A DNA stretch of 32,000 nucleotides from Dickeya dadantii NCPPB 898 (GCF_000406145.1 NZ_CM001976.1:2042161-2074160); one strand, 5' to 3'. Numbered from the stretch's first letter, positions 5,142 to 29,968 are shown. Notes: generated by a model from the letters alone, not told the origin. A program made the numbers and translations.

Positions 5142-5852
5142 ATGCCGCGTCACCATGCCAGTCGTGGAATTTTGGTGCTGGAATCGCCCTGGGAGCTGGA
5201 TGAGCACGATGCCAACCGCTCATCCGTGGTGCCGTTTATTGAAGGTATCGCCAAAGTCGCCGGTGATACCGAGGTGTATTACGCGAATTTCTACGATAAG
5301 AAGAGTTTTCGTACCGCACTGCATTGCCTGTGCAAGATCCCGTTCAAAAACATCATTATTTATGTCGCCGCGCACGGTCAGGGAAAGGAGCTTGGCGGCA
5401 CGCATATCCGGGATGTGCTCATACCGGTAGGTGAATTGTCCCATCGTTTCAATATTACCGGGCTGCTACTCGGCGCTTGTTTCGTGGGCGCGCATACCGA
5501 TCTAATGGAAACGTTCACCAGCGGCAATCATTTGCGCTGGTGTGCCGGATACGCCTCAGAAACCGAATGGCTGACTGGTACGCTGATTGACTGCGCCATC
5601 ATCAATCAGATGCTGTCGCTAAAAAAGAATGCCTTTGCAGATCGCGATACTATCGTCGAGAACCTGGCGCTGGCGATTTCTCCCTTCCACGATAAATACG
5701 CGATTGGGCGTGATGCGCACGGCAAACCGATGCAATTGCGCGATGCCTTTCAGTGTGTGGTTCAGCCCAGCGGGCAAGGGCATAAGCCGCGCACGGTGTC
5801 GGACAAACTCTTCCAACTGGCGGGGCAATTGAGGCGGCAGGAAGTCGAATAA
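5142..5852 (+). CDS. Hypothetical protein, possible caspase/CHAT-like (clan CD) fold
   Basis: 236-aa ORF with a good SD ('aaaggagaa', 4 nt before the ATG). Motif order is ILVLESPW ... EVYYANF ... IIIYVAAHGQG ... GLLLGACFVG ... WCAGYASETEW. That resembles the beta-strand/His-Gly ... Ala-Cys arrangement of caspase/CHAT peptidases. GC looks lower than fruA by eye. The function is motif-level inference only. Confidence 0.6.
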   Translation: MPRHHASRGILVLESPWELDEHDANRSSVVPFIEGIAKVAGDTEVYYANFYDKKSFRTALHCLCKIPFKNIIIYVAAHGQGKELGGTHIRDVLIPVGELSHRFNITGLLLGACFVGAHTDLMETFTSGNHLRWCAGYASETEWLTGTLIDCAIINQMLSLKKNAFADRDTIVENLALAISPFHDKYAIGRDAHGKPMQLRDAFQCVVQPSGQGHKPRTVSDKLFQLAGQLRRQEVE

Positions 5853-10666: not shown

Positions 10667-11854
10667 TCAAACGCGGGAATGTACCAGTCGCACGCTGCGG
10701 TAGACGCTGAGCAGGGTGGCGAACAGCGCCACCAGCACCAGCGGCGCGCCGACATAACCGATTTTATCCATCCCCAGATGCAGGCTGACCTGGCTACCCA
10801 GCAGCGCGCCGCCGCCGATGCCGAGGTTGAACAAGCCGGAGAAAATCGACATGGCGACGTCACTGGCGTCAGGCGCCAGCGACAGCACTTTGGCCTGCAT
10901 TGCCAGCCCGATGGACATCATCGCCAGCCCCCACACCAGACACAGCAGCGTCAGGCCGAACGGATAACCGGACAACGGCATCAGCAACGTCAGACAGGCC
11001 AGCAACAGCAGCATAGCGGTCACCAGAAAGCCAATCGGGAAACGGTCGTTGTAGCGGCTGTAGAGCATACTGCCGGCGATCCCGGCGCAGCCGAACAACA
11101 GCAAAATCAGGGTGGTGAAGTTTTCCGGCAGACCGGCGACCGTCTGGATAAACGGCTCAATATAGCTGTAAGCGGTGAAATGCGCGGTCACCACCACCAC
11201 GGTCAGCAGGTAGATACCGACCAGCGCCGGGCGACGGAACAGCTTCGGCACGCTGCCTAGCGAACCGGAATGCTCGCTGGGCAGCAACGGCAGCAGGCGC
11301 GCCAACAGGATCATGGCGACCGTGGCGCCGGCGGCGATGGTCAGGAAGGTTACGCGCCAGCCGAGATACTGACCGATGACCCGCCCCAGCGGCAGCCCCA
11401 GCACCATCGCCAGCGACGACCCGGTGGCGATCAGCCCCAGCGCCTGCGCGCGTTTACCGGGGGGCGCCATGCGAATCGCCAGCGAGGCGGTAATCGACCA
11501 GAATACCGAGTGCGCCAGCGCCACCCCGGCGCGGGAAATAACCAGCACGGTAAAGTTCCAGGCGACGGCGGACAGCAGATGGCTGAGGATAAACAGGCTG
11601 AACAGGCCAATCAGTAATTTACGGCGCTCAATACCGCTGGTCAGCAACATGCAGATCAGCGAAGCCACCGCCACGATCCAGGCATAAATGGTGATCATCA
11701 GCCCGACATCTTCGGTTTTCATGGCAAAGGAGTTGGCGATGTCGCTCAACAGCCCCACCGGAATAAATTCCGTGGTGTTGAAAATAAACGCGGCGATAGC
11801 CAATGTGACCACGCGCAGCCAGGCGGTGGAGCGCGAGGGTGATGCGGATGTCAT
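10667..11854 (-). CDS. sotB: Sugar efflux MFS transporter SotB/YdeA family
   Basis: 395 aa. [33 protein letters not shown]...[28 protein letters not shown]...[13 protein letters not shown]...[30 protein letters not shown] matches E. coli SotB (YdeA). Confidence 0.9.
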
Positions 11855-12668
11855 AACAGGATCCTGAACGGGTGTGACGGGCGTTCTATTGTAGCCAATC
11901 GCAAGTCAAAATGCGATTACGATCACATTTCAGCCGAGAGGCACAGGGCCTGAATTGTGATTCGGCGCGCTGCTTTCGACGGACGTTTAGCGTCCGCGCC
12001 GATGGCCGGCACAGTCGCGAAGACCGTCGTCGGCGAGGGGCGCCGCGTTCGCTATCGTGAGCGGTGAGGTTTGAGGGCTTACCTATCGGCGAGCCATGCC
12101 GGGATGCAATGAAGGCATGATGGCGGCTTTGGGCGGTACCGATGTCGCGATTCATTGCAGGATACCGCCTAATATTTAATATTATTGTGGATAGAATTAC
12201 GCTGCCAATAATTGGTGTTGGAAATTATGAGAAAGAATGAATATTCTTAGTTCGTTGCGTTTGTTTTTAAATAAAATACATAAATAAAGATTATTTGTTT
12301 ATTTTGATGACTGGTTATTTGTAGCGCAAAGAAAATATTATTTATGAATATATTTTTGGCGCAAATTCATGGTGCTTTTTATGTTTTCTATTTTAAGGAG
12401 GAATGCCGGGAATTTTGCTTTTTTCAGGAGCTTATCGCTCTTGGTTAACATTATTTTCATTTATTTTATATTTCTTTAACTATTTCTTTATTCCTGTCCA
12501 TAGAAAAAGAAATTGGTGTGCCTAAAAATTACCCTGATAATTATTATATTTTACGGAGCGGTAACGTGCATAAGGTGAAATAGGTTTTTATAATAATGGG
12601 TGAAATTGCAGTTGCAAAAGAAAAGCAGGTGTGAGAGCTTTATCACAAGCTTCGATGAGGGAACAGCA

Positions 12669-13694
12669 ATGAGCATATATATTAATGCGGTGGAAACCTA
12701 TTTGCCTGGTCCGGTTATTAGTAATCAGGAGTTAGGGAATAAAATCGGATTTAAACCTGAGTTAATTAAAAAGCTTTTTGGGAATACTGGTCGGCATTTT
12801 TCAGTTAATATGAATACCGGTAAACCTATCGCGTCGTCAGCGGAATTAATTACCATCGTAATCAAGAAACTCCTTTCCAGCGCCGGTATCAATAAAGAAC
12901 GCATCGATTTTATTATTGTAGCGTCCGCCACGCCGGATACGCTCTTGCCAAGCAGTGTCAATCAGGCATGTCATGCGATGGGGTTTCGGCAGATTGAAAC
13001 TTACCAGATTATTTCGGGGTGTTCCGGCGCGGTACAGGCGCTCAAGCTGGCTCGTGAGCTGGTGGCGACGCCGGATAATGGCCTGGACAACGGCCTGGTC
13101 ATCGGGGTTGAGACAGCCTATAAATTCCTGGATGTCTTTGATGAACATGCCGTTAAGAAAGAAACGAAGGAACTGGTGAATTATACTCTGTTTGGCGACG
13201 GTGTAGGCGGATGCCTGATTTCCAATCAGCCATCAGCATCCAGTATTGAGATTGAACATATTTCTTTTAAATATCTGGGCGTTGATGAAGCTGTCGGGCA
13301 ATTGGCTAATTGGCGTGGCTCCCGTAATGATATTGATTATGGCGCTTTGCTGAACGAGGAATATAAGTTGATTGAAAAACTGGTGCCGGTCATTACCCAG
13401 GATACGATCAATGCATTGACGGATAAATTAGGTGGGCGTCCGGACTGGCTGTTGCCGCCGCAACTTTCCGGCTCGATGCTGGAGAAAATTTTATCCGATA
13501 TCGGTTATACGGTAGATGAAATATTCAGCCTGGTGGCTGAAATCGGTAATACCGCTAATGCCGCGTTATTTTTTCAGATAAAAGAATTCAGCGATATCTC
13601 CCTTGCCAATGAATGCGGCATTGGTATTTCTGTTGAGTCGTCGCGTTGGCTGGCAGGTGGTCTGATTCTAAGAAACAGGAAAGGTCTTTTATAA
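12669..13694 (+). CDS. KASIII (FabH)-like condensing enzyme, candidate tetronate-ring-forming enzyme
   Basis: The track ORF starts at GTG 12600. I prefer ATG 12669 (MSIYINAVETYLPG...), preceded by 'gagggaa', giving 341 aa. It has FabH-like features: an ISGCSGAVQAL nucleophile Cys, LFGDGVGG, and GNTANAAL for the Asn. Where FabH has 'VPHQAN' this protein reads 'LLPPQLSG', so the His appears to be missing. The gene is AT-rich. Confidence 0.8.
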   Translation: MSIYINAVETYLPGPVISNQELGNKIGFKPELIKKLFGNTGRHFSVNMNTGKPIASSAELITIVIKKLLSSAGINKERIDFIIVASATPDTLLPSSVNQACHAMGFRQIETYQIISGCSGAVQALKLARELVATPDNGLDNGLVIGVETAYKFLDVFDEHAVKKETKELVNYTLFGDGVGGCLISNQPSASSIEIEHISFKYLGVDEAVGQLANWRGSRNDIDYGALLNEEYKLIEKLVPVITQDTINALTDKLGGRPDWLLPPQLSGSMLEKILSDIGYTVDEIFSLVAEIGNTANAALFFQIKEFSDISLANECGIGISVESSRWLAGGLILRNRKGLL

Positions 13695-13911
13695 CATCAT
13701 GTAAAAAGGACTTTTATCTGTACCCAAAAGAATTTTAGGCGCAGGCCAACCGACAGGCGTGGCGCGCAACGCAATGCGGCCGTAAACCATGTGGAATGAA
13801 ATCTACTGCGGCCCAAAAAGAACAGGCCCGTAGGTACACCAATGGGCCGAGCCGTGAAGCGGATACGCCTGCAACCTGAAATCTGACGGGATAAAGAGAA
13901 TAAGGACATTT

Positions 13912-15660
13912 ATGAAACCGAATAATGCATTAAGTCGGATCGCCGCCTCCAAAAAAATCACGGCGGAAGGAAAGCGCGTCGTTAATATCGCCACTTTCAG
14001 TAATTTCAATCATAAAGCATTGAATGACTTGATTACGTTCAGTTTGAATGACCTGGGTTGTTATCCATCCTTTTATGACGGTGTTTACAGCGACTACTTT
14101 CCCCACGTTTTGGGTAATGCCGCCGACATTAAGACGTTCGGGGCGCAGTTTCATTTTTATGTCCTTGATTCCTCCTTTATCGAAAATGACATTGGTTCAC
14201 TGCTGCCGGCGGACGATATCCGCGAAAATATCCAGGAACACAAAAGTCGGCTGGCGTATCTGCTGAATTTTTCCGCTACCGGCTGCGATGCCCACGTTGT
14301 GCTGAACACCGTCCATATCGCTGAATCGCAGTTCAAACAGATTATCGCGCAGGATCAGCGGGCGGCGTTGAAGCAGCTGATCGGCGAGTTCAACGCGTAT
14401 CTTTTGGCGTTGGGGCAAACGGAAGATCGCGTGACGGTGGTCGATCTGCAGGAAACCGGCGGGGCAGTGGAGGATGCTGCCACCCGCCGAACGGCGCAGT
14501 TACTGGGGCTGGGCGTTGGTCTGGATGCGCTGGACGTCATTGCGCGCGTCGGCGTCGCCGCTATTCGGCACGCGCTGGGGAAAACGCTGAAATGTGTGGT
14601 CAGCGATCTGGATAACACCTTGTGGAAGGGCATTTTGGCGGACGATGGCGTCGACGGCATCCTGATGGCGGATAAACATATCGGCACGGGGCACCTACGC
14701 TATCAGGAGTATCTGCGCAATCTGTACGATCAGGGCATCATTCTGGCCATTTGTAGCAAAAACGATCGGGAGAATGTGGAGGCGGCGTTTAAACGCCGCG
14801 CCGACGAGATGCGTATCTCGCTGGACAAGTTTTCCGTGGTTAGCGCCAACTGGCAGGGGAAAAGCGGCAACATCCAGAACATCGCCAACGAGTTGAACAT
14901 CTCCCCGGAACACATGCTTTTTATTGACGACTCGGCGTTCGAATGTGCGGAAGTCAAAGCCCGTATTCCGGCAATCACCGTGCTGGAATTTTCCGGCGAC
15001 GTGGCGGAGAACCTCGCCGCGCTGATTGCCGCCGACTATTTCCTGCGTCCGAGCATCAGCAGCGATGACCGTATGCGCAATCTGAGTTATGCGCAGAACA
15101 AACTCCGCACGGAGCTGCAGAAAGATTTTGCGGATGACCACGCCTTTCTGGCCAGCCTGGGGATGACGCTGACTATCCTGCCGGTGGAAGCGTCCACGCT
15201 GGATCGCGTATCGCAACTGACGCTACGCACCAACCAGTTCAATATGACGACGCAACGGATGACCACGCAGGACGTGGCCGGCTACCTCGCGCGGGAAGGG
15301 CATCTGGCGGTTACGCTGGCGTGCCGCGACCGAATCGGCGACTACGGCACCATTGGCGCGATATTCCTGCGTTTCGACGGCGACGGCTGTCACATCGACA
15401 ACTTCATCATGAGCTGCCGTATCTTCGGGCGTCAGGTCGAGTTCGCGGCGATGCGCTGGCTGTTCGGCTTATGCCGGGCGCGGGGTGTCGACCGGATTAC
15501 CGCCGCGTACGGCCCGACCGAAAAAAATAGAAAATTCCAGCGTTTTTATCCGGATTGCGGGTTCGCCGAAACCGCAAGCAATGTGTTCACCGTTATCGAC
15601 CCGGCGCCTGCGTTGCTGGCCGAGAACAGTAATACCGTCACTGTCAAAGAGGGGGAATGA
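13912..15660 (+). CDS. FkbH-like glyceryl-S-ACP synthase (HAD phosphatase plus acyl-transfer domain)
   Basis: 582 aa. The HAD motif I 'VVSDLDNTLWKG' is typical of FkbH-family proteins. Later motifs are 'LAICSKN' and 'MLFIDDS', and a C-terminal 'IMSCRIFGRQVE' cysteine motif is present. SD 'taagga' sits 6 nt upstream of the ATG. Confidence 0.85.
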   Translation: MKPNNALSRIAASKKITAEGKRVVNIATFSNFNHKALNDLITFSLNDLGCYPSFYDGVYSDYFPHVLGNAADIKTFGAQFHFYVLDSSFIENDIGSLLPADDIRENIQEHKSRLAYLLNFSATGCDAHVVLNTVHIAESQFKQIIAQDQRAALKQLIGEFNAYLLALGQTEDRVTVVDLQETGGAVEDAATRRTAQLLGLGVGLDALDVIARVGVAAIRHALGKTLKCVVSDLDNTLWKGILADDGVDGILMADKHIGTGHLRYQEYLRNLYDQGIILAICSKNDRENVEAAFKRRADEMRISLDKFSVVSANWQGKSGNIQNIANELNISPEHMLFIDDSAFECAEVKARIPAITVLEFSGDVAENLAALIAADYFLRPSISSDDRMRNLSYAQNKLRTELQKDFADDHAFLASLGMTLTILPVEASTLDRVSQLTLRTNQFNMTTQRMTTQDVAGYLAREGHLAVTLACRDRIGDYGTIGAIFLRFDGDGCHIDNFIMSCRIFGRQVEFAAMRWLFGLCRARGVDRITAAYGPTEKNRKFQRFYPDCGFAETASNVFTVIDPAPALLAENSNTVTVKEGE

Positions 15661-15902
15661 CCATGAAACTGGACGATTTTATCGGCTTTATCAACACCAA
15701 AACCGGCATGGCGCTGGCGGCCGAACAGGCGCAGGAAGATTTGACCAACCTTCCGGAGTGGGACTCGTTGACCTTCGTCTATCTGTTGATGGAAATCGAA
15801 AAGCAACAGGACGTCAAAATCGATGTCGAGAAGGTATTGCAGTGCACCACGCTGAATGACATTTACAGGGTCGTGAGCCATGAAGTTGCTGAAAGTTTCT
15901 AG
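15657..15902 (+). CDS. Stand-alone acyl carrier protein
   Basis: 81 aa. 'LPEWDSLTFVYLLMEIE' contains the DSL phosphopantetheine-attachment serine motif. The ATG overlaps the FkbH-like stop (ATGA). An alternative ATG lies at 15663. Confidence 0.75.
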   Translation: MTMKLDDFIGFINTKTGMALAAEQAQEDLTNLPEWDSLTFVYLLMEIEKQQDVKIDVEKVLQCTTLNDIYRVVSHEVAESF

Positions 15903-16626
15903 GGAAAGGCGCCAGACGCTCTCTTTTCTGGCGATATCCAGGGGCATCCCGGCCATTACCGTCATGCGCGAGATCGATGTCTCGCGCATTGTGGCGGGCG
16001 GGCTGCAGCGCAGCATGACGGCGATTACCATCAAAGCGATCAGCGAGGCGCTGCGTCAGTTTCCGCAACTGAACACGATGATCAGATTCGGCAGCGACAG
16101 CACGCTGATTTGCCCGGATAACATCAGTACCCGGGTGACGCTGGAAAAGGCGCTGAACGGCGTCTCCGGGGTGTATTCACGGGTGATCAAAAATACGGAT
16201 CGGCTATCTGTCGCTGATATCGAACGGACTCTGCAGCAGTTCAAGCAGGAGGACGCGGCTACCAGCGAGCATTACAAGAAGATTCGCTTTATTCAACGTT
16301 TGCCGCCGTTACTGGCCGGTCTGCTGTTGCGGCTGGCGATGCTGTCGCCGGCGCTGCAGGCGGAAACCTGGGGCAGCTTCACCGTGACATCACTGGGGAA
16401 AAACAGCCCCGACGCCTGTATCCCCCTATCCGGTTCCACGTTCACGTTTACGCTGGGGTTGATTAACGAAAAGTTGTCGCGAAACGTGCATGAAGTGACG
16501 ATGTCGCAGGTGGCGAATCTATCGATGATTTTCGACCACCGCGTGCTGGACGGCCGGCTGGCGTCGGAATTTCTGGCGCAGATAAAAAGCAACATGGAAG
16601 GTTTTGCACTGGAGTCATCATCATGA
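15880..16626 (+). CDS. 2-oxoacid dehydrogenase E2 catalytic-domain-like acyltransferase (Agg4/ChlD3-type)
   Basis: 248 aa. 'MIFDHRVLDGRLASEFL' carries the DHRxxDG catalytic signature of E2/CAT-fold acyltransferases. No lipoyl or E3-binding domains are present. It overlaps the ACP gene by 23 nt. Confidence 0.8.
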   Translation: MKLLKVSRERRQTLSFLAISRGIPAITVMREIDVSRIVAGGLQRSMTAITIKAISEALRQFPQLNTMIRFGSDSTLICPDNISTRVTLEKALNGVSGVYSRVIKNTDRLSVADIERTLQQFKQEDAATSEHYKKIRFIQRLPPLLAGLLLRLAMLSPALQAETWGSFTVTSLGKNSPDACIPLSGSTFTFTLGLINEKLSRNVHEVTMSQVANLSMIFDHRVLDGRLASEFLAQIKSNMEGFALESSS

Positions 16627-17696
16627 TGCTTGATGAACTCAAGAATTTTGTGCTGCTGCACAGCAATGTGCTGAATGTCGGCGCGGAAACCCGCTCCATC
16701 CTGTCGGATATTCATCATCTGGGCGACGATTTGCCGCATAGCTGGAGCCAGGTGTTTTACCGTCAGGCGCAATACCATGAAAACCAAGGCGAGTTGCTCA
16801 AGGCGTGTTCGCTTTACAATCTGGCGCGTTTTCCCTATCCGGAAACACCGCTCCAGCATGAGTGCAACCGGCATTGTCAGCGCTTGTTCCGCCGGCAATA
16901 TATCGAGAGCGGCACGGTGACGAGGGTCAGTCTGTCGCAGGGGCGCCAGGTGTGCTACGTCAGAAAAAAGAACACCCGCAATGTCGTCATTATTAATGGG
17001 GGCATCATCTCGCTGAAAGAGCAGTGGGTGAACCTGGTGGGGCTGTTCGAACGTTTCGACGTTACCGTGGTGTTGACGGAAATGCCGGGGGTGGGGGAAA
17101 ACCAACTGCCCTATAACGAACAATCTTTCCGCATGTACAGCGATGTGTTGGATTATCTCGCACAGGATCGCTCCGACATCCGGTGCCATATTTTCGGCCT
17201 GAGCTTCAGCGGGTTTATCGCGTACAAGAACAGCCTGACCGATAGCCGCATCGTGGGCATCACCATGGCGGGCACGCCGCTGGATTCGCTGTACCACGAT
17301 CGGGATGTCTATCGGCGGTTGCCTTACGTTACACGGCTGGTTATCGGGCATAACGTGGGGAAAACGCACCCGGAACTGGATGACGACGACAAGGTATTTC
17401 GTTATCTCGATAACACCTTCGTGATGCGCCAGGAGGATATCAACCATAACGTCAGGCTGTATTACGTTCAGAGCCTGCGCGACGAAGTGATCCCTAACGT
17501 CGAAGCGGACGCGATCCGCCGTTTGTCCCGGCAGCACCATATTCTGTCGCTGGATGACGTGCATGGATCGCCCGGATACGGCAAAACCGTGCGGGTTTAT
17601 TTACTGTGGTCGTTGCTGGATTCGTTGCGCCTGTCGCGGGTTCTGCTCGGTGTCGCCAGGCTGGGGTTTCGCGTCCTGCGGCGTCTGAAGCGATAG
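16623..17696 (+). CDS. Alpha/beta-hydrolase-fold protein (FrsA/DUF1100-like; Agg5/ChlD4-type candidate eliminase)
   Basis: 357 aa. 'CHIFGLSFSGFIAY' is a nucleophile-elbow-like motif, and the protein has an N-terminal helical region. There is an ATGA overlap with the preceding gene. It is the last gene of the operon. Confidence 0.72.
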   Translation: MMLDELKNFVLLHSNVLNVGAETRSILSDIHHLGDDLPHSWSQVFYRQAQYHENQGELLKACSLYNLARFPYPETPLQHECNRHCQRLFRRQYIESGTVTRVSLSQGRQVCYVRKKNTRNVVIINGGIISLKEQWVNLVGLFERFDVTVVLTEMPGVGENQLPYNEQSFRMYSDVLDYLAQDRSDIRCHIFGLSFSGFIAYKNSLTDSRIVGITMAGTPLDSLYHDRDVYRRLPYVTRLVIGHNVGKTHPELDDDDKVFRYLDNTFVMRQEDINHNVRLYYVQSLRDEVIPNVEADAIRRLSRQHHILSLDDVHGSPGYGKTVRVYLLWSLLDSLRLSRVLLGVARLGFRVLRRLKR

Positions 17697-17810
17697 GCGG
17701 CGTCTCGCTATGATTCCGCGTGCTGACGCGGATCCCAAACGCGGTAATCGGCGTACGGAGCACCGTGCATAGCCTTTTAGTCTGTAAACCGTTTGGCCTT
17801 TTGTCAGTTT

Positions 17811-17838
17811 GGGGTGGTGATACCGGCCCCGTTTTTTT
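17811..17838 (+). terminator. Candidate rho-independent terminator of the five-gene operon
   Basis: 'ggggtggtgataccggcccc' is an imperfect G/C stem, followed by 'gttttttta' (T-run 17832..17838). Confidence 0.5.
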
Positions 17839-17845
17839 ATGTGCC

Positions 17846-17886
17846 GCGCCGTCTCGTCGGTCGGCGTGAGGGAGACGAGACGGCGC
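17846..17886 (-). terminator. Strong hairpin immediately downstream of the ABC permease stop
   Basis: Perfect 13-bp inverted repeat 'gcgccgtctcgtc' (17846..17858) / 'gacgagacggcgc' (17874..17886) with a 15-nt loop. It starts 6 nt past the permease stop on the minus strand. No U-tract follows on the minus strand. Confidence 0.5.
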
Positions 17887-17891
17887 CGGCG

Positions 17892-18887
17892 TCAGCGTTT
17901 CTGGAAGTAGGTCATCGCCAGCGCCAGTGCCAGCACCAACCCTTTGATGATATCCATGGCGTAGTAGGGGACGGACAACATCACCAGACCGTTTTGCAAC
18001 ACGCCGAGGATCACCGCGCCGATCAGTGTTCCCAGCGCGTTGGGCTTGCCGGAACCCGCCAGCGAAAAGCCGATATAAGCGGCGGCGACCGCATCCATCA
18101 GATAACCTCCACCCGCATTGACCTGAGAAGAGCCGATGCGCGATGCCAGCAGGATGCCGCCCAGCGCCGCCAGCAACGAGGAGAGCAGATAGGCCAGCAC
18201 ACGGTAACGCGCGGTACGGATCCCGGCCAGTCGCGCCGCTTCCGGGTTGCCGCCAATCGCGTACATGCGTCGGCCGTGCTTGGTCAGCGACATATACAGC
18301 TGCACCAGCACCGTCACCACCAGCATGATCACCACAATCACCGGCACCTGTCCCAGCGTGGCGAACACCTCGGGGATCACGCCTTCCGCCATATCGCCGC
18401 TCGGCAGCAGCATATTCTGGGTGATGGAGCCGCCGTAGCTGTAGGTCATGGCGACGCCCTGAATCACGAACAGGCTGGCCAACGTCGCCAGCATGTCGGG
18501 AATGCGTAGCACCACGATCAGAAACGCATTGAACAGCCCTACCAGCAGGCATAGCGTCAGCGTCAGCGCGATGGCGGCGGTGGCGCCAAGCCCGTGCCAG
18601 ACAAACAGCGAAATCACCAGCGCGTTCGCCAGCGAGGCGGTCGACCCCACCGACAGGTCGAAGCCGTCAACCGACAGCGAAATGGAAACGGCTATCGCGA
18701 TCACCGTAACGATAGCGATGGAGCGCAGGATATTGATGATGTTGTTCGGATCGAGAAAATTGTCCGACGCCAGCCCGAACAGGGCGATCAGCGCCACGAC
18801 GGTAATCAGCATCCCCCATTTGTAGAACAGGTCAAACAGACGGTGATGAAAGGGCTGCGCCCCGTTGGATGCAAGTGGCTGACTCAC
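17892..18887 (-). CDS. Sugar ABC transporter permease (CUT2, RbsC/AraH-like)
   Basis: The track ORF (367 aa) has an Arg-rich N-terminal extension that overlaps the ATPase gene. I place the start at GTG 18887, preceded by 'ggaggaactcccgc' and overlapping the ATPase stop (GTGA), giving 331 aa. The protein is polytopic. 'RTARYRVLAYLLSSLLAALGGILLASRIGS' is typical of the RbsC-type family. Confidence 0.85.
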   Translation of the reverse strand: MSQPLASNGAQPFHHRLFDLFYKWGMLITVVALIALFGLASDNFLDPNNIINILRSIAIVTVIAIAVSISLSVDGFDLSVGSTASLANALVISLFVWHGLGATAAIALTLTLCLLVGLFNAFLIVVLRIPDMLATLASLFVIQGVAMTYSYGGSITQNMLLPSGDMAEGVIPEVFATLGQVPVIVVIMLVVTVLVQLYMSLTKHGRRMYAIGGNPEAARLAGIRTARYRVLAYLLSSLLAALGGILLASRIGSSQVNAGGGYLMDAVAAAYIGFSLAGSGKPNALGTLIGAVILGVLQNGLVMLSVPYYAMDIIKGLVLALALAMTYFQKR

Positions 18888-20395
18888 GCGGGAGTTCCTC
18901 CGGTTGAATAAAGTAACAACGTCTCTTCGTCGGCGTCGGCGCCGTCCAGTTCGGCGACGATACGCCCGTCCCACAGCACGCAGATTCGATCGCACAGGCC
19001 CACCAGTTCGGAGAACTCGCCGGAGGCGTAAATCACGCCTTTGCCCTGCTGCGCCAGGGAATCGATCAGGGTAAACAGATCCTGTTTGGCTTTGATATCC
19101 ACGCCTTTGGTGGGTTCATCCAGAATCAGCACCTGCACGTCGCTGCGCAGCCATTTACCGATCGCCACCTTTTGCTGATTACCGCCGGACAGACGGCGCA
19201 ATCGCTGCTGCGGCCCGCTGGTGCGGATGGTCAGCCGCTGGATCAGCTCGCGGGCCCAGGCCAGCGCCTGACCGTGCCCGAAAACGCCGTAGCGGGAAAA
19301 GCTGTCGCTGGCGCCGATGCTGAGATTCATGGTGACGGATTCGTCGATAAAAATGCCTTCTTTGCGCCGCTCTTCCGGCACCAGCGCAATACCCTGTCGT
19401 ACCGCGTCGGCCGGCGAGGTGGGGTGCCAGGGCCGGCCCTGATAGCGCCCGGATTCGATGCGGCTGCGGGCAGCGCCGAACAGCGCCTTGCACAGCTCGG
19501 TTTTGCCGGCGCCGGCAAGACCGGCGATGCCGAGAATCTCGCCCTGACGTAGCCGCAGCGAAATGTTGTGCAGTAGGGTGTCGTCATGCAGGCCGTCTAC
19601 CTGCAACAGGATGTCGTTGTCGAGATGTGGGCGGCGCGGCGGAAAAATATCATCCAGCCGGTGGCCCAGCATCCGCTCGACAATTTCTCCGCCGCTCAGC
19701 CCCTGCATCGGGCCGCTGCTGACAAATTGCCCGTCGCGCAGCACGGTCAGGGTGTCGCAGATGGCTTTCAGCTCGTGGATACGGTGCGAAATGAAGACGA
19801 CGCCGATACCGTCCTGCTGCAAACGACGCACTACCGCGAACAGCCGGGCGCTTTCTTCCTGATCGAGCGGAGCGGTGGGTTCGTCAAGAATCAGAAACCG
19901 GCAGCGGTGGGAGAGCGCGCGCGCCAGCAGGATTTGCTGTTTTTCCGCCAGCGAGCACCGCTCCAGCCGCTGGCGAACATTGATGCTGACCCCCAGTTGC
20001 GCCAGCAGCGCCTGCGCCTGCTGATAGAGCGCCGGCCAGTTGAGCACGTGGCCGCTTTCCGCCAGTTGATCCAGCATGATATTTTCCGCCACCGACAGCG
20101 TAGGCACCAGCGCGGCGTCCACTTCCTGCTGCACCAGATGAATACCGTGGCGTTTGGCGTCTCGGGGGGAATGAATTGCGACTTTTTCACCATCCAGCAG
20201 GATATCTCCGCTGTAATGGTCATAAGATCCAGAAAGAACCGCCATTAGCGTGGATTTTCCCGCACCGTTGGCGCCGGTCAACGCGTGGATAGAGCCGCCT
20301 TCCAGCGTGAAATTCACCTGTCTGAGCGCCGGGAATCCGGCAAAAGAGATGGAAATGTAGCGCATTTCCAGACGCGAACGCGGGTTTATGGACAT
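18884..20395 (-). CDS. Sugar ABC transporter ATP-binding protein (duplicated ABC domains, RbsA/MglA-like)
   Basis: Walker A motifs 'GANGAGKST' and 'GLAGAGKTE'. The second signature is 'LSGGNQQKV', and the Walker B motifs are 'LILDEPT' and 'LILDEPTKG'. The track start is TTG at 20407. I prefer ATG 20395 (MSINPRSRLEMRYISISF), giving 503 aa. Confidence 0.9.
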   Translation of the reverse strand: MSINPRSRLEMRYISISFAGFPALRQVNFTLEGGSIHALTGANGAGKSTLMAVLSGSYDHYSGDILLDGEKVAIHSPRDAKRHGIHLVQQEVDAALVPTLSVAENIMLDQLAESGHVLNWPALYQQAQALLAQLGVSINVRQRLERCSLAEKQQILLARALSHRCRFLILDEPTAPLDQEESARLFAVVRRLQQDGIGVVFISHRIHELKAICDTLTVLRDGQFVSSGPMQGLSGGEIVERMLGHRLDDIFPPRRPHLDNDILLQVDGLHDDTLLHNISLRLRQGEILGIAGLAGAGKTELCKALFGAARSRIESGRYQGRPWHPTSPADAVRQGIALVPEERRKEGIFIDESVTMNLSIGASDSFSRYGVFGHGQALAWARELIQRLTIRTSGPQQRLRRLSGGNQQKVAIGKWLRSDVQVLILDEPTKGVDIKAKQDLFTLIDSLAQQGKGVIYASGEFSELVGLCDRICVLWDGRIVAELDGADADEETLLLYSTGGTPA

Positions 20396-20728
20396 AATTG
20401 ACAACAACGGGTTCTTAACAGCGATAATGACGGGAACTTGACGTTGAAAAATATCATATTAACCGCAGAATGGCATGCCTGAATGGGTTGCCGGACGCCT
20501 CGGGGAAGAAATGAAAAAGCATAACTTAAGCAAAAACGTTATTAAGACCGACGCCGGTTATCCTTAACTATGGTTTTTCCGCGCAGAGTTCCAGATTAAA
20601 CAGAACATTATCCAGACCCAACATCATTCGAGGTGCGGCATAACCGGCTGGCGTGTTGAACAATGCACCGGCAACGTGAAGTATGGTGGGGATAGACAAA
20701 AATCGATTCAGACAGGAATGCATCCGTA

Positions 20729-21817
20729 ATGAGCACAACTGATATCCGGGTCCAGGTGGGACCGGCCAATTATTTTTCTTTTCCCGGGGCGATTGACAAA
20801 CTGAGCGAATTTTATCCGGACGAGGTGCTGGCCCGCGCGTTCTGGATACACGGCGAGCGGGCGCTGGCGGCGACGCGCGCTTATCTGCCGGCGGCGTTTT
20901 CTGCGCCGACGGCCCGGTCGGCCAGCTTCTCCGCGCATTGCAGCGAAAGCGAGATTGCACGCTTAACCGCAGCGGCGGGCGGTGACCGCTCCGTAGTGAT
21001 TGGCGTTGGCGGCGGCGCGGTACTGGACACCGCCAAGGTGGTGGCGCGACGTCTTGGCTTGCCGCTGGTGGCGATTCCGACCATTGCCGCGACCTGCGCC
21101 GCCTGGACGCCGCTCTCGGTCTGGTACAACGACGCCGGGCAGGCGCTACGGTTCGAGATTTTCAATGATGCCAACCATCTGGTGCTGGTGGAACCGCGTA
21201 TTCTGCTGGCGGCGCCGGTGGAGTACCTGCTGGCGGGGATCGGCGATACGCTGGCGAAATGGTATGAAGCGGTGGTGTTAAGCCCGCAGCCGGAAACTCT
21301 GTCGCTGACCGTGCGTCTGGGATTGCAAACCGCGCAGGATATTCGTGACGTGTTGCTGAACCAGAGCGAATCCGCGCTGAAAGCGGCGCGTAATGCCACA
21401 CTGAACCAGGATTTTCTGGATGTTGTCGACGCGATTATCGCCGGCGGCGGTATGGTGGGCGGGTTGGGCGAGCGTTACACCCGGGTGGCGGCGGCGCATG
21501 CGGTGCACAACGGTTTGACGGTGCTGCCGCAGACGGCGCATTTTCTGCATGGCACCAAAGTGGCTTACGGCATTCTGGTGCAGTGCGCGCTGCTGGGGCA
21601 AACCGAGGCGTTGCGTCAGTTGAAAGTGGCGTTTCGGGTGTTCGGGTTACCGGTGTCGCTGGCCGAGTTGGATGTGGATATTACCGATGAGACGGCGTTG
21701 CGAGCGGTTATCGCCCGGACGTTACAGGCTGGCGAATCCATTCATTATCTGCCCGGCCCGCTGGACGCTGATACGCTGCTGACCGCGTTTCGGACGGTGG
21801 AACTGGCGAACGGCTAA
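20729..21817 (+). CDS. ybdH: Iron-containing (group III) alcohol dehydrogenase family, YbdH/HcxA-like hydroxycarboxylate dehydrogenase
   Basis: 362 aa. IRVQVGPANYFSFPG...DRSVVIGVGGGAVLDTAKVVARRLGLPLVAIPTIAATCAAWTPLSVWYNDAGQAL...LLAGIGDTLAKWYEAVVLSPQPETL...AAHAVHNGLTVLPQT..FLHGTKVAYGILVQ matches my recollection of E. coli YbdH nearly end to end. Confidence 0.85.
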   Translation: MSTTDIRVQVGPANYFSFPGAIDKLSEFYPDEVLARAFWIHGERALAATRAYLPAAFSAPTARSASFSAHCSESEIARLTAAAGGDRSVVIGVGGGAVLDTAKVVARRLGLPLVAIPTIAATCAAWTPLSVWYNDAGQALRFEIFNDANHLVLVEPRILLAAPVEYLLAGIGDTLAKWYEAVVLSPQPETLSLTVRLGLQTAQDIRDVLLNQSESALKAARNATLNQDFLDVVDAIIAGGGMVGGLGERYTRVAAAHAVHNGLTVLPQTAHFLHGTKVAYGILVQCALLGQTEALRQLKVAFRVFGLPVSLAELDVDITDETALRAVIARTLQAGESIHYLPGPLDADTLLTAFRTVELANG

Positions 21818-25362: not shown

Positions 25363-26014
25363 ATATTCTCTTTAAGTGAATAACTTTTGTTGAGTTGTTT
25401 ATTTATGGTGAGTGTAACGGTTGTATCTGCTACTGGCAACCCGGTTGTTTATCCGTTCGCTGGCCGTCAGGAATGGGGCGGAAAGACGTACAGCGACATC
25501 ACCGTGCCGGATACGGCCTGATGGGTATCATCGGTAGTGAAAATCAGGTGATAATAGTTATATTGAAAGCCAATATTTGGCTATCAGGTTATATCTATAA
25601 AATGTCGGGCGTACGTCGACGGCTGTTTTTATTTTTTGTGACATTTAAATCAGCCGTCGGGTAATAGCGCGGCTTTTTTTTTATCGTTAAGTAAGGATAA
25701 GATGGCATTCGGGTTTTGGCACGGAGCCTGCTTAATTCTTCTTTTTTCTTTGCGACATCCTATGGACAACACAGACGGTCATTACTGACCGATCTCCTAC
25801 CCGTTATACCCGCCGTGCTTCAATTGCGGATGCGCTGGTCGCTTTCATTGATTTCCGTCTCTTACCGGTGTAAGCGACCGGGATTCAGTGGATTGCAGCT
25901 TGCACACGACTTGAATTATTTAGGGTAAATAGCTTGATGCATCCTGGCGCCATCGCGTTTTACTGTGCCGTGGATGAAACATTATTCAAATCAGACTCAT
26001 ACTATCTGGATATC

Positions 26015-27643
26015 ATGATGCGCATTTTAAAAAATATCACCATCAGGGCCATGCTGTTGATCATACTCACCGGATTCACCTTAATCTGGGGTGTCAGCGC
26101 GATTACTACTATCGTGTCATTAAATAAAGTCGAGTCCTTATTGGACACCAATCAGACCGAGAAAAAAAATTACACTATTCTGTCCAACGGCCGGGAAGCC
26201 TTTACCCAGTCCATCGCGCTGATTAATCGCAGTACGTTATTCCAGCAGCGGGGGGATAGCGCTCAGGCTCAGGCGCTGTTGCAAAAAGTACAAGGTAATC
26301 TCGACAACACCCGCACCTTGCTGACGGCTTTCCGCGCCGCCGGCCATGACGGCATCAATGCCACACTGGCGGGGCAAATCGCCGACTCGTGGGATAACGC
26401 CATTTCCCAGGCGCTGATGCCGATGCTGAACGCCAGCCGCGCCGGCCGTTTCGATGAATACCAGCATTTTTACCTGGACGTTTACCCCGCACTGGCGCAG
26501 GCGTTTGGCAACAACGTGGCGCAGTACGGTGAAGCGATACAGGCCGACGACTCATTGACCCGGGCGAATCGCCTGGCCTCTATTAGCCGGGATGTGCTGA
26601 GCGTCGCCTTGATTCTGGGGGTGTTGGCGTTGCTTCTGTGCGATCGCTATCTGGTCAACTATCTGGTTAAACCGGTCGGGGATATCAAACGTCATCTGAC
26701 TGCCCTGACGGAAGGGCGCCTTGGCGCGGATCTACAAGAATTCGGTCGCAACTGCGTCGGGCAGTTGATCCCCTATATCCGACAGATGCAAAGCAACCTG
26801 CGCGATACCGTGAGCGTGATCCGCGATAGCTCGGCGGCGTTGCATGTCGGTGCGAGCGAGATTAGAAGCGGCAACGACGAGCTGGCCAGCCGGACGGAAG
26901 AACAGGCGGCGGCGTTGCAACAGACGGCCGCCAGCATGGAGCAGTTGAGCGCGACCGTGACTCAGAACGCGGATAACCTTAAGCAGGCGAGCAAACTGGC
27001 GCAGGAAGCGACCGAGCGTGCGCTTAGCGGCGGCGAAGTGGGTAAATCGCTGGAGTCGATGATGAAGGGGATTTCTGACAGTTCACGTCAAATCAACGAC
27101 ATTATTACCCTGATTAACGGTATTGCGTTCCAGACCAATATCCTGGCCTTGAACGCGGCGGTGGAAGCGGCGCGTGCCGGTGAGGCCGGACGTGGCTTTG
27201 CCGTAGTAGCGGGCGAAGTGCGTAATCTGGCTCAGCGCAGCGCTCAGGCCGCCAAAGATATCAGCGCATTGATCGGCGATTCCGTTCAGCGCGTTGAAGC
27301 GGGATCCATCCAATTGGAGCAGGCCGGCGCGGCAATGGGCGATATTATTAACAGCATCATGAGCGTGGATGCGTTGATCCGCGATATCGCGTCGGCGTCT
27401 GAAGAGCAAAAGCACGGCATCATGCAGGTGGGCCAGGCCGTGACGGAAATGGACAGCGTGACCCAGCAGAATGCGGCGCTGGTGGAAGAAGCGGCATCAT
27501 CGGCGGCATCACTGGAGTCTCAGGCCCGACAACTAGCGGACGCCGTCACCGTGTTCAGCCTGTCGGAGGAGGAGCACCGGTATTCCGCCAACAGCATGCT
27601 GCCTGCGTCACGACTGGCATTGGGCGCAGCAGCATCCCGCTGA
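26015..27643 (+). CDS. Methyl-accepting chemotaxis protein 1 (Tar-like four-helix-bundle sensor, HAMP, signalling domain)
   Basis: The track ORF starts at TTG 25934. By alignment with the two downstream paralogs ([11 protein letters not shown] / [11 protein letters not shown]) the start is [14 protein letters not shown] at 26015 or 26018. The signalling hairpin is canonical: '[40 protein letters not shown]'. The protein ends ...ALGAAASR with no NWETF-type pentapeptide. Confidence 0.88.
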
Positions 27644-27730: not shown

Positions 27731-28294
27731 ATCGCTGGCACACCTGAACTATGTCCCTGCCATATTGCGGGTCGTCGGCGCGACGACTGGCCCTCTCTGC
27801 TTGCTCTTACAGCATCACGGCACGTTCGCTTATGGCTTTCCTGTCACTCGCATAATTTAGGTTATAACGATGGCAGTGATAGATATTATTAATGAAGGGG
27901 AAATAACCAGTAATATTAAAGGGAAATCGTATGCGTATTTTATAATGTGATCGATGACGGTATTGTATTTTTAAATTTAAGGCTCGCTTAATTTTCTCTG
28001 AGTAATCTTTGAAATGAAGATTGTCGGGCTCTCGGGTTATTTTTCTGAGCAACGAGAACGGTAAGTTGAAGTGCTATTCCATTTGTTTAATTGGCAATAG
28101 TTTATACCGGAAAGATTAGTGCCGTGACTGATTTTCAGTACAGCTTTACCGGTTTGACCAGGGTTTTTCTTGTCACGATGCGAAGATAAGTAAGCAGCGG
28201 TAAATAATACCTCTGATTACATAGGTGACAACCAACGCAGGTGACTATGATTAATAGTCGTGCCATGCACGCAGAAAATGATTCGGAGCCTGTT

Positions 28295-29968
28295 ATGAAT
28301 TTCTTAAAAGATATTACCGTCAGACGAATGATGTTAATTATTCTGGCGCTATTTTCGGTCGTGTGGGGAATGGCATCTTCGTTTACCTTGTATTCACTTG
28401 GTAATGTCAATAGTTTATTAAGTGACAATCAGGACCAGAAAAAAAGTTATTCCATTTTGGTTCGCGGCAACGATCAGTATTCTCGTGCGGTAACGCGTAT
28501 GTCGCGCATTCCGGAGTTTATACAGCAAGGCGAGATGGATAATGCCCAGAAAACGTTGATCTCTGCGACGGACGCGCTGAAAAATACCAAAGAGGCGTTG
28601 ACGCAGTTTAAGCATAGCCGGCAGGTTGGCGTCAGCGATGAACAGGTCCAGCAACTGATTGCCTCATGGGAACAGGTTCTCGGCAATGCGGTCGAGCCAA
28701 TGATGAGCGCGCTGAAAGACGGGCGAATAGACGAATTTAAACGAGTTTTCCTGAAACAATATCCGCCGATGAGCGTGGAGTTCGGCGAATTGACGGAAAA
28801 ATACGCCGCTGCTATCCAGGCCGACAGTACTATTACGAATGTCGGGCGCTACATCGAGATTAGCAAAAACGTGTTACTGGCTGCCCTGATTATTGGCGTC
28901 ATCGTGCTGCTCCTGAGCGACCGTTATCTGGTCAACTATCTGGTGAAACCGATTGGTCAGATTAAACGCCATCTGGAATTGCTGACCAGCGGCAAACTTG
29001 GGGTGGAGCTGGATGAATTCGGCCGCAACTGTGCCGGCCAGTTAATCCCTTACATTCGGGCGATGCAGCACAGCCTGCGCAATACGGTGCAGACTATCCA
29101 TGCCAGCTCGTCGGTGATTTACACCGGCACCAGCGAAATCCGCCAGGGTAATGATGAACTGTCGCGCCGTACCGACCAGCAGGCGGCGGCCTTGCAGGAA
29201 ACCGCCGCCAGCATGGAAGAGCTGACCTCGACGGTGAAAAACAACGCCGATAACGTGCGTCAGGCGCGGCAGATTTCGGAAGAGGCGCAGCGGATGGCGC
29301 GTCAGGGCGGCGACATTACCGACAGCGTGGTGACCACCATGCAGGGGATTGCCGACAGCTCACGCAAGATTGCCGATATCACCAGTGTGATTAACGGCAT
29401 CGCCTTCCAGACCAATATCCTGGCGCTGAACGCGGCGGTGGAAGCGGCGCGGGCCGGCGAACAGGGTCGCGGTTTCGCGGTGGTGGCCGGGGAAGTGCGC
29501 AATCTGGCGCAGCGCAGCGCGCAGGCCGCCAAAGAGATCGAGACGCTGATTGGCGAATCGGTCAGCCGGGTGAGTACCGGTTCTGAACTGGTGCGGGAAG
29601 CGGGCAACGCGATGGAAGTGATTATCTCCTCGGTGTCACGGGTGCATGGGCTGATGGGCGAGATTTCGGCGGCGTCTGATGAGCAAAGCCGGGGCATCGC
29701 GCAAATCGGTCAGGCGGTGACGGAAATGGACGGCGTGACGCAGCAGAACGCGGCGCTGGTGGAGGAAGCCTCGGCGGCGGCGGCGTCACTGGAAGATCAG
29801 GCGCAGAGTCTGGCGGTGGCGGTGGCGGCGTTTGACCTGGGCGATACGCCGACGGCGCTGCACTCCCCGCGTGCTAGCGCTGCGGCGCTGAAACGGCCTG
29901 TATCGGCCTCTTCGCTGGGCGCGCGGCCGGTCACGGCTTCCGCTAAGGGGGACTGGGAAACGTTCTGA
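28295..29968 (+). CDS. Methyl-accepting chemotaxis protein 2 (Tar-like), with C-terminal DWETF tether motif
   Basis: The start is taken at ATG 28295 ([17 protein letters not shown]), preceded by 'cggagcctgtt'; the track start 28241 is an upstream extension. This gives 557 aa. The signalling hairpin is '[42 protein letters not shown]'. The last residues 'GDWETF' resemble the NWETF CheR/CheB-docking pentapeptide. Confidence 0.9.
28883..29826 (+). repeat. Copy A of the ~0.94-kb near-identical segment shared by MCP2 and MCP3 (TM2-HAMP-signalling module)
   Basis: It aligns without gaps to 31057..32000 at a constant offset of 2174 nt. By eye there are roughly 25-30 mismatches, about 97% identity, mostly at third codon positions. 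The reverse-strand shadow ORFs 29302..29697 and 31476..31871 in the track differ at only one residue. Confidence 0.9.

Follow-up and report, generated by a model that had tools for sequence, protein, structure and literature searches.

The agglomerin biosynthetic cluster (agg1-agg5) of 'Pantoea agglomerans' PB-6042 was reportedly characterised by Kanchanabanca et al. in 2013. Here, we describe a closely similar five-gene set (g1-g5) in Dickeya dadantii NCPPB 898, located within a stretch of 32,000 nucleotides (GCF_000406145.1 NZ_CM001976.1:2042161-2074160) that is referred to below as the window. The agglomerin route has been studied by in vitro reconstitution and gene knockouts, as described in a review (PMC4979870) and two further publications (PMC7489565, PMC9324945), and for the in vitro reconstitution and the chemistry of Agg4 and Agg5 we rely on this literature. 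According to these papers, an FkbH-like enzyme and an acyl carrier protein (ACP) generate glyceryl-ACP, after which a FabH-like enzyme closes the tetronate ring (PMC4979870, PMC7489565, PMC9324945). Agg4 is described there as acetylating the 5-hydroxymethyl group of the tetronate product (PMC4979870), and Agg5 as eliminating acetate to leave the exocyclic methylene (PMC4979870, PMC7489565).

The agglomerin record HF565364.1 (8,009 bp, seven open reading frames, ORFs) served as the blastn query in a 2024 Front Microbiol survey (PMC11350110), which found homologues in 181 strains. These comprised 178 Dickeya and 2 Musicola, with PB-6042 as the only Pantoea, and the agglomerin cluster was present in 34.5% (178/516) of the Dickeya genomes (PMC11350110). 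In the supplement of that survey, the record matches D. dadantii 3937 with 97% cover and 88.51% identity. The D. dadantii copy is thus not new, the literature already covering the cluster, the enzymology behind it and its occurrence in Dickeya; an earlier note on this DNA, made from the sequence alone, knew of no description of such a cluster at this locus in an apparent soft-rot enterobacterium, a claim of novelty that the survey contradicts.

The agg cluster of PB-6042 resembles that of the window in having five genes in the same order, standing alone without a polyketide synthase (PKS), and its chromosomal flanks match those of the window, as seen through Dickeya chrysanthemi. The window differs in belonging to another species and in a protein divergence of about 11%. 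A more distant comparison is provided by the tetronate and spirotetronate operons of actinomycetes (abyssomicin AbyA1-A5, tetronomycin, RK-682 and tetromadurin Mad7/8/16/17/18), which contain the same five enzyme families and follow the same chemistry. However, identity to the window proteins is only about 30-35%, and the actinomycete operons form part of large modular PKS clusters, which provide the beta-ketoacyl chain, whereas the window has no PKS.

Gene content and orthology of the five-gene set

We interpret the five-gene set of D. dadantii as orthologous to the agglomerin operon (agg1-agg5), working by the published agglomerin route, with a probability of roughly 0.92, and the operon almost certainly makes an agglomerin-type tetronate antibiotic. 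The ORF listing and family searches identified five intact co-directional genes at 12669-17696 (+), presented in Table 1. The g2 protein aligns with Agg2 (CCP37722.1) at 89% identity over 582/582 aa without gaps. This entry, named 'Glyceryl-ACP synthase [Pantoea agglomerans]', was found in the protein cluster that contains the D. chrysanthemi FkbH and is the Agg2 of the agglomerin producer PB-6042. Orthology of the whole set to a D. chrysanthemi cassette was also observed, with the same gene order and with identities between 87% and 94%. In a protein search, each of the five proteins had an exact match annotated as Dickeya dadantii, and all five ORFs are full-length across D. dadantii, D. solani, D. 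dianthicola, D. fangzhongdai, D. chrysanthemi and D. oryzae.

Table 1. Features of the operon region in the window, with the amino-acid identity (%) of each protein to its counterparts in D. chrysanthemi L081, Brenneria uluponensis L083, Photorhabdus sp. APURE L084 and contig L085.
Feature	Coordinates	Strand	Length or remark	L081	L083	L084	L085
Intergenic, divergent MFS (major facilitator superfamily) gene to agg1	11855..12668	.	presumed operon promoter/leader				
g1, agg1 orthologue, FabH-like (KASIII-fold)	12669..13694	+	341 aa	94	69	51	51
agg1-agg2 spacer, non-coding	13695..13911	+	217 nt				
g2, agg2 orthologue, FkbH-like glyceryl-ACP synthase	13912..15660	+	582 aa	89	58	37	33
g3, agg3 orthologue, dedicated ACP	15657..15902	+	81 aa	87	67	36	41
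g4, agg4 orthologue, E2/CAT-fold acyltransferase	15880..16626	+	248 aa	90	63	41	37
g5, agg5 orthologue, AbyA5-like alpha/beta-hydrolase-fold acetate-eliminating enzyme	16623..17696	+	357 aa	93	63	40	41

The genes from g2 to g5 are tightly coupled, with ATGA overlaps at the g2/g3 (15657-15660) and g4/g5 (16623-16626) junctions and a 23-nt overlap between g3 and g4 (15880-15902). The earlier note had described this co-directional arrangement and its three overlaps, and the ORF coordinates agree. It had also placed the start of the operon at 12160 with all genes abutting or overlapping, and here the coordinates differ: 12160-12668 is a non-coding leader rather than part of the first gene, and g1 and g2 neither abut nor overlap. 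The longest ORF for g1 runs from a GTG (12600..13694). Its start is most likely the ATG at 12669, since the resulting 341-aa form is the one annotated in most Dickeya genomes and a GAGGGA Shine-Dalgarno-like site precedes this codon. Orthologues of g3 measure 79-80 aa, and its start may lie two codons downstream of the one listed, as judged from these lengths.

The translations of all five genes contain the diagnostic motifs listed in the earlier note, namely the GCSG motif with the FabH-like Cys in g1, DLDNTLW and SCR in g2, WDSL in g3, DHRVLDG in g4 and GLSFSG in g5. The g1 protein matches Pfam ACP_syn_III above the cut-off (1.3e-7) and NCBIfam fabH at 1e-25. Its scores of 79-90 bits fall far below the FabH equivalog cut-offs (249-292), indicating that it is not the housekeeping FabH. 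The nearest solved relative is the FabH-like structure PDB 5by7, matched over the full length at 1.1e-47. In the 341-aa form of g1, a LLPPQLSG motif is located near residue 270, and PPQLSG is common to the FabH-like proteins of all five cassettes compared and to PDB 5by7. Housekeeping FabH carries the His-containing PHQAN motif at this position. The cassette proteins keep the GCSG Cys and the GNTxN Asn, and the apparent replacement of PHQAN by PPQLSG would fit a non-decarboxylative condensation.

The g2 protein, which has a HAD-IIIC core, belongs to the FkbH family (TIGR01686, 2.4e-87; 293 bits, cut-off 147). The DxDxT motif of this phosphatase core corresponds to D232, D234 and T236, and the C-terminal Cys502 lies within SCR; D232, D234, T236, S501, C502 and R503 are invariant across 12 homologues. 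The g3 protein is a PP-binding domain protein (PF00550, 2.8e-6, 27.9 bits against 20.8), in which the Ser of WDSL is the phosphopantetheine attachment site. For g4, a match to 2-oxoacid_dh was obtained (PF00198, 3.2e-17, 63 bits against 23), with E2 catalytic cores as its PDB matches. Across residues 4-333, g5 matched two solved structures of AbyA5, 4ywf and 5no5 (9e-46), and the alignment pairs GLSFSG with ALSFSG (nucleophile-elbow Ser), RDEVIP with RDEIIP (Asp), and the DDVHGSP motifs (His). These profile and structure matches, all far stronger than chance would give, bear out the five functions that the earlier note had predicted for an agglomerin-type cassette, including the FkbH and E2/CAT assignments of the 582-aa and 248-aa proteins that it had singled out for checking, and the orthology described above places the set closer to the agg cluster than the term 'agglomerin-type' implied.

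The region upstream of agg1 is distinct in composition. The segment 12160-12600 is AT-rich, with 28% GC, agg1 has 45%, and the rest of the window 58%; over 11500-14500, which covers the leader, agg1 and the start of agg2, GC amounts to 39-49%, compared with about 58% elsewhere in the window. This low GC, together with the presence of the cluster in only about one third of Dickeya genomes, suggests either a horizontal origin or AT-rich regulatory DNA. No ORF of note was found in 11855..12668, and around the operon only the leader segment 11932-12585 fails to align with D. chrysanthemi. One sigma-70-like site was detected at 12445-12472 (+), of a kind not commoner here than in shuffled sequence. 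The promoter and terminator scans of 11800-18000 likewise gave no more sites than shuffled sequence.

The agg1-agg2 spacer is predicted to fold with a minimum free energy of -72.6 kcal/mol (z = -4.2 against shuffles). Its 3' portion of about 130 nt is kept between D. dadantii and D. chrysanthemi roughly as well as coding sequence. In D. chrysanthemi the spacer is longer (303 nt), carrying a 99-nt insertion in its 5' part according to the alignment to L081. The window therefore differs from the D. chrysanthemi/PB-6042-type locus in two respects, a leader that cannot be aligned and a spacer about 86 nt shorter. The spacer is lacking in Brenneria, where a 30-nt gap separates the genes, and in Photorhabdus, where they overlap. 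From its folding and conservation, it may represent an internal promoter or leader. A 70-aa minus-strand ORF filling the spacer was considered and rejected as it is not conserved in D. chrysanthemi. An Rfam scan of the whole window, spacer included, returned no match, and a repeat search gave only short matches consistent with chance.

Proposed pathway and alternative readings

By analogy with the agglomerin route, g2 (Agg2, FkbH) would take up a three-carbon unit from glycolysis, its HAD domain would dephosphorylate this unit, and the C-terminal Cys would pass it to the holo-ACP g3 (Agg3), giving glyceryl-S-ACP. The FabH-like g1 (Agg1) would then form two bonds, a C-O and a C-C bond, between glyceryl-ACP and a 3-oxoacyl thioester, and a 3-acyl-5-hydroxymethyl-tetronate would be released. 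The hydroxymethyl group would be O-acetylated by g4 (Agg4), and g5 (Agg5, AbyA5-like) would eliminate acetate to yield a 5-methylidene tetronate, the predicted products being agglomerins. The 3-oxoacyl partner is presumably drawn from fatty-acid metabolism, because no PKS is encoded in cis. Family searches of the ORFs in the 32-kb window, the largest of which encodes 582 aa, revealed no PKS, nonribosomal peptide synthetase (NRPS) or FkbG/FkbI/FkbK-type gene, in agreement with the earlier note.

Several points weigh against the agglomerin assignment. Agg2 is the only Agg protein with which a direct comparison is available, and the orthology of g1, g3, g4 and g5 relies on the published whole-record blastn match and on D. 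chrysanthemi as a proxy. The divergence of about 11% in amino-acid sequence from the characterised enzymes could shift the acyl-chain preference. Additionally, the literature searched yielded no report of a Dickeya that makes agglomerins, and the AT-rich upstream region together with the low-GC agg1 suggests that the operon may be silenced under laboratory conditions.

The divergence bears on the possibility that the chemistry is the same and the product set another, the FabH-like enzyme of D. dadantii selecting other 3-oxoacyl chains and the tetronates not being agglomerins A-D. Such a shift would be in line with g1 and g2 being 94% and 89% identical, not 100%, to the D. chrysanthemi/PB-6042-type proteins, and with chain choice being loose, as agglomerins differ from one another in the acyl chain only (PMC11350110). 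We regard it as improbable, however, given catalytic motifs without residue change and a chain-selecting enzyme at 94% identity, where a change of substrate class is unlikely. The base composition bears on a different possibility, namely that the operon is intact but cryptic: D. dadantii would not transcribe it under ordinary conditions, for instance because nucleoid proteins bind the AT-rich leader. This would explain why no product has been noticed although strain 3937 is a model organism, and it agrees with the low GC of the upstream 440 nt and of agg1 relative to the rest of the window, as well as with the absence of reports of agglomerin from Dickeya in the literature searched. On the other hand, full-length ORFs in six Dickeya species argue for selection on function, and PB-6042, apparently a D. 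chrysanthemi, produces agglomerins. Silence of the operon is therefore a real possibility, albeit a doubtful one.

An altogether different role would be for the FkbH/ACP pair to feed methoxymalonyl-ACP or another glycerate-derived extender to a PKS elsewhere, or to modify a lipid or polysaccharide, with no free tetronate formed. Some database entries are indeed named 'methoxymalonyl-ACP biosynthesis protein FkbH', FkbH genes standing alone occur very widely in other settings, and the methoxymalonyl-ACP pathway (FkbG/H/I/J/K, FK520-type) likewise uses an FkbH and an ACP to load a unit derived from glycerate (PMC7489565). Membership in that pathway was nevertheless rejected, as the FkbG O-methyltransferase, the FkbI acyl-ACP dehydrogenase and the FkbK 3-hydroxyacyl dehydrogenase are missing from the window, as is a PKS; in their place, the window encodes an Agg4/Agg5 pair and a FabH-like enzyme of the tetronate-forming kind. 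The cassette is always accompanied by this tetronate-specific pair of Agg4-like and AbyA5-like proteins and is orthologous to the experimentally reconstituted agg cluster, so that the extender or lipid role is effectively refuted. Returning to the agglomerin assignment, we infer expression of the D. dadantii operon, with agglomerins proper as its products and not close analogues or chain-length variants.

Identity of PB-6042 and the likely producers of agglomerin

The comparison with D. chrysanthemi bears on the origin of the characterised cluster. Agg2 of PB-6042 is 99.0% identical to the FkbH protein of D. chrysanthemi (L081 10001-11749), and the whole record HF565364.1 matches D. chrysanthemi EC16 and NCPPB 402 with 100% cover and 98.78% identity (PMC11350110 supplement). 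Because the 8-kb record extends past the 5-kb operon into the chromosomal flanks, this whole-record match points to D. chrysanthemi as the source. The survey noted only that the identity of strain PB-6042 could not be confirmed (PMC11350110). On these sequence matches, PB-6042, filed as Pantoea agglomerans, is probably a misidentified D. chrysanthemi.

Taken together, we lean slightly towards a picture in which about a third of Dickeya genomes, including that of the soft-rot model D. dadantii, belong to natural agglomerin producers and PB-6042 is a misidentified D. chrysanthemi. Agglomerins, whose activity is chiefly against anaerobes, would in that case serve soft-rot pathogens as a weapon against competitors in oxygen-poor macerated plant tissue rather than a Pantoea biocontrol trait; no study of the ecological role of agglomerin in Dickeya was found in the literature searched. 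The data suggest that textbooks, which attribute agglomerins to Pantoea, should probably assign them to Dickeya. With its genetics and transcriptomics, D. dadantii would offer a convenient host in which to study the regulation and ecology of a minimal PKS-free tetronate pathway. Furthermore, the cassette also occurs in the Brenneria/Prodigiosinella group and in Photorhabdus, and small acyl-tetronates may be commoner in Enterobacterales than the single characterised example implies.

Related cassettes and chromosomal context

In D. chrysanthemi L081, the genes are arranged as MFS(-), KASIII, FkbH, ACP, E2, alpha/beta hydrolase, ABC permease(-) and ABC ATPase(-), and about 21 kb of the window, comprising the cassette and both flanks, aligns to this contig at 83-89% nucleotide identity. 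Stand-alone five-gene cassettes were also observed in Brenneria, Photorhabdus and L085. The five genes diverge in parallel (Table 1), and the catalytic motifs, including DSL in g3 and DHRVLDG in g4, are kept in all five cassettes, which together indicate a coherent unit inherited together. In the FkbH search, close homologues were confined to Dickeya, Musicola and the Brenneria/Prodigiosinella group, and the distant ones (33-37%) included Photorhabdus. A contig scan with the FkbH alignment gave, among the matches listed, distant FkbH loci (28-40% identity), mostly from actinomycetes and metagenome-assembled genomes, with no Dickeya.

The Brenneria cassette occupies the same chromosomal site as that of Dickeya, after the MFS gene. 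In B. uluponensis L083 (4540-4998, 11999-12211), a Y1-type transposase gene is present two genes upstream of the cassette. This locus lacks the ribose-type ABC transporter and the Fe-ADH-family oxidoreductase gene that follow the cassette in the window (17892-21817). The upstream MFS gene was considered as a dedicated exporter and rejected, as it matches a conserved sugar transporter (PRK03545) at equivalog level. Its place beside the cassette is restricted to Pectobacteriaceae and is not shared by Photorhabdus or L085, so that it is probably chromosomal context. In Photorhabdus sp. APURE L084 (98-4605, 6137-10907), luciferase genes of the luxCDAB type directly adjoin the cassette. Downstream of the cassette are genes for a carbamoyltransferase and a short-chain dehydrogenase, on account of which the Photorhabdus product may be a modified tetronate.

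Elsewhere in the 32-kb window, there are genes of a fructose phosphotransferase system (PTS) and genes for transporters, dehydrogenases, LysR regulators, two chemoreceptors and an esterase. A 236-aa ORF (5142-5852, +) without a Pfam or NCBIfam match was identified between the fructose PTS genes and a TIM-barrel gene of the xylose-isomerase-like type. No gene is called at the equivalent position of L081, and the segment 5117-5919 does not align to that contig. The chemoreceptors are encoded by tandem methyl-accepting chemotaxis protein genes (25934-27643 and 28241-29968, +) with TarH-type sensor domains, which lie in DNA of lower GC (45-51%) than their surroundings.

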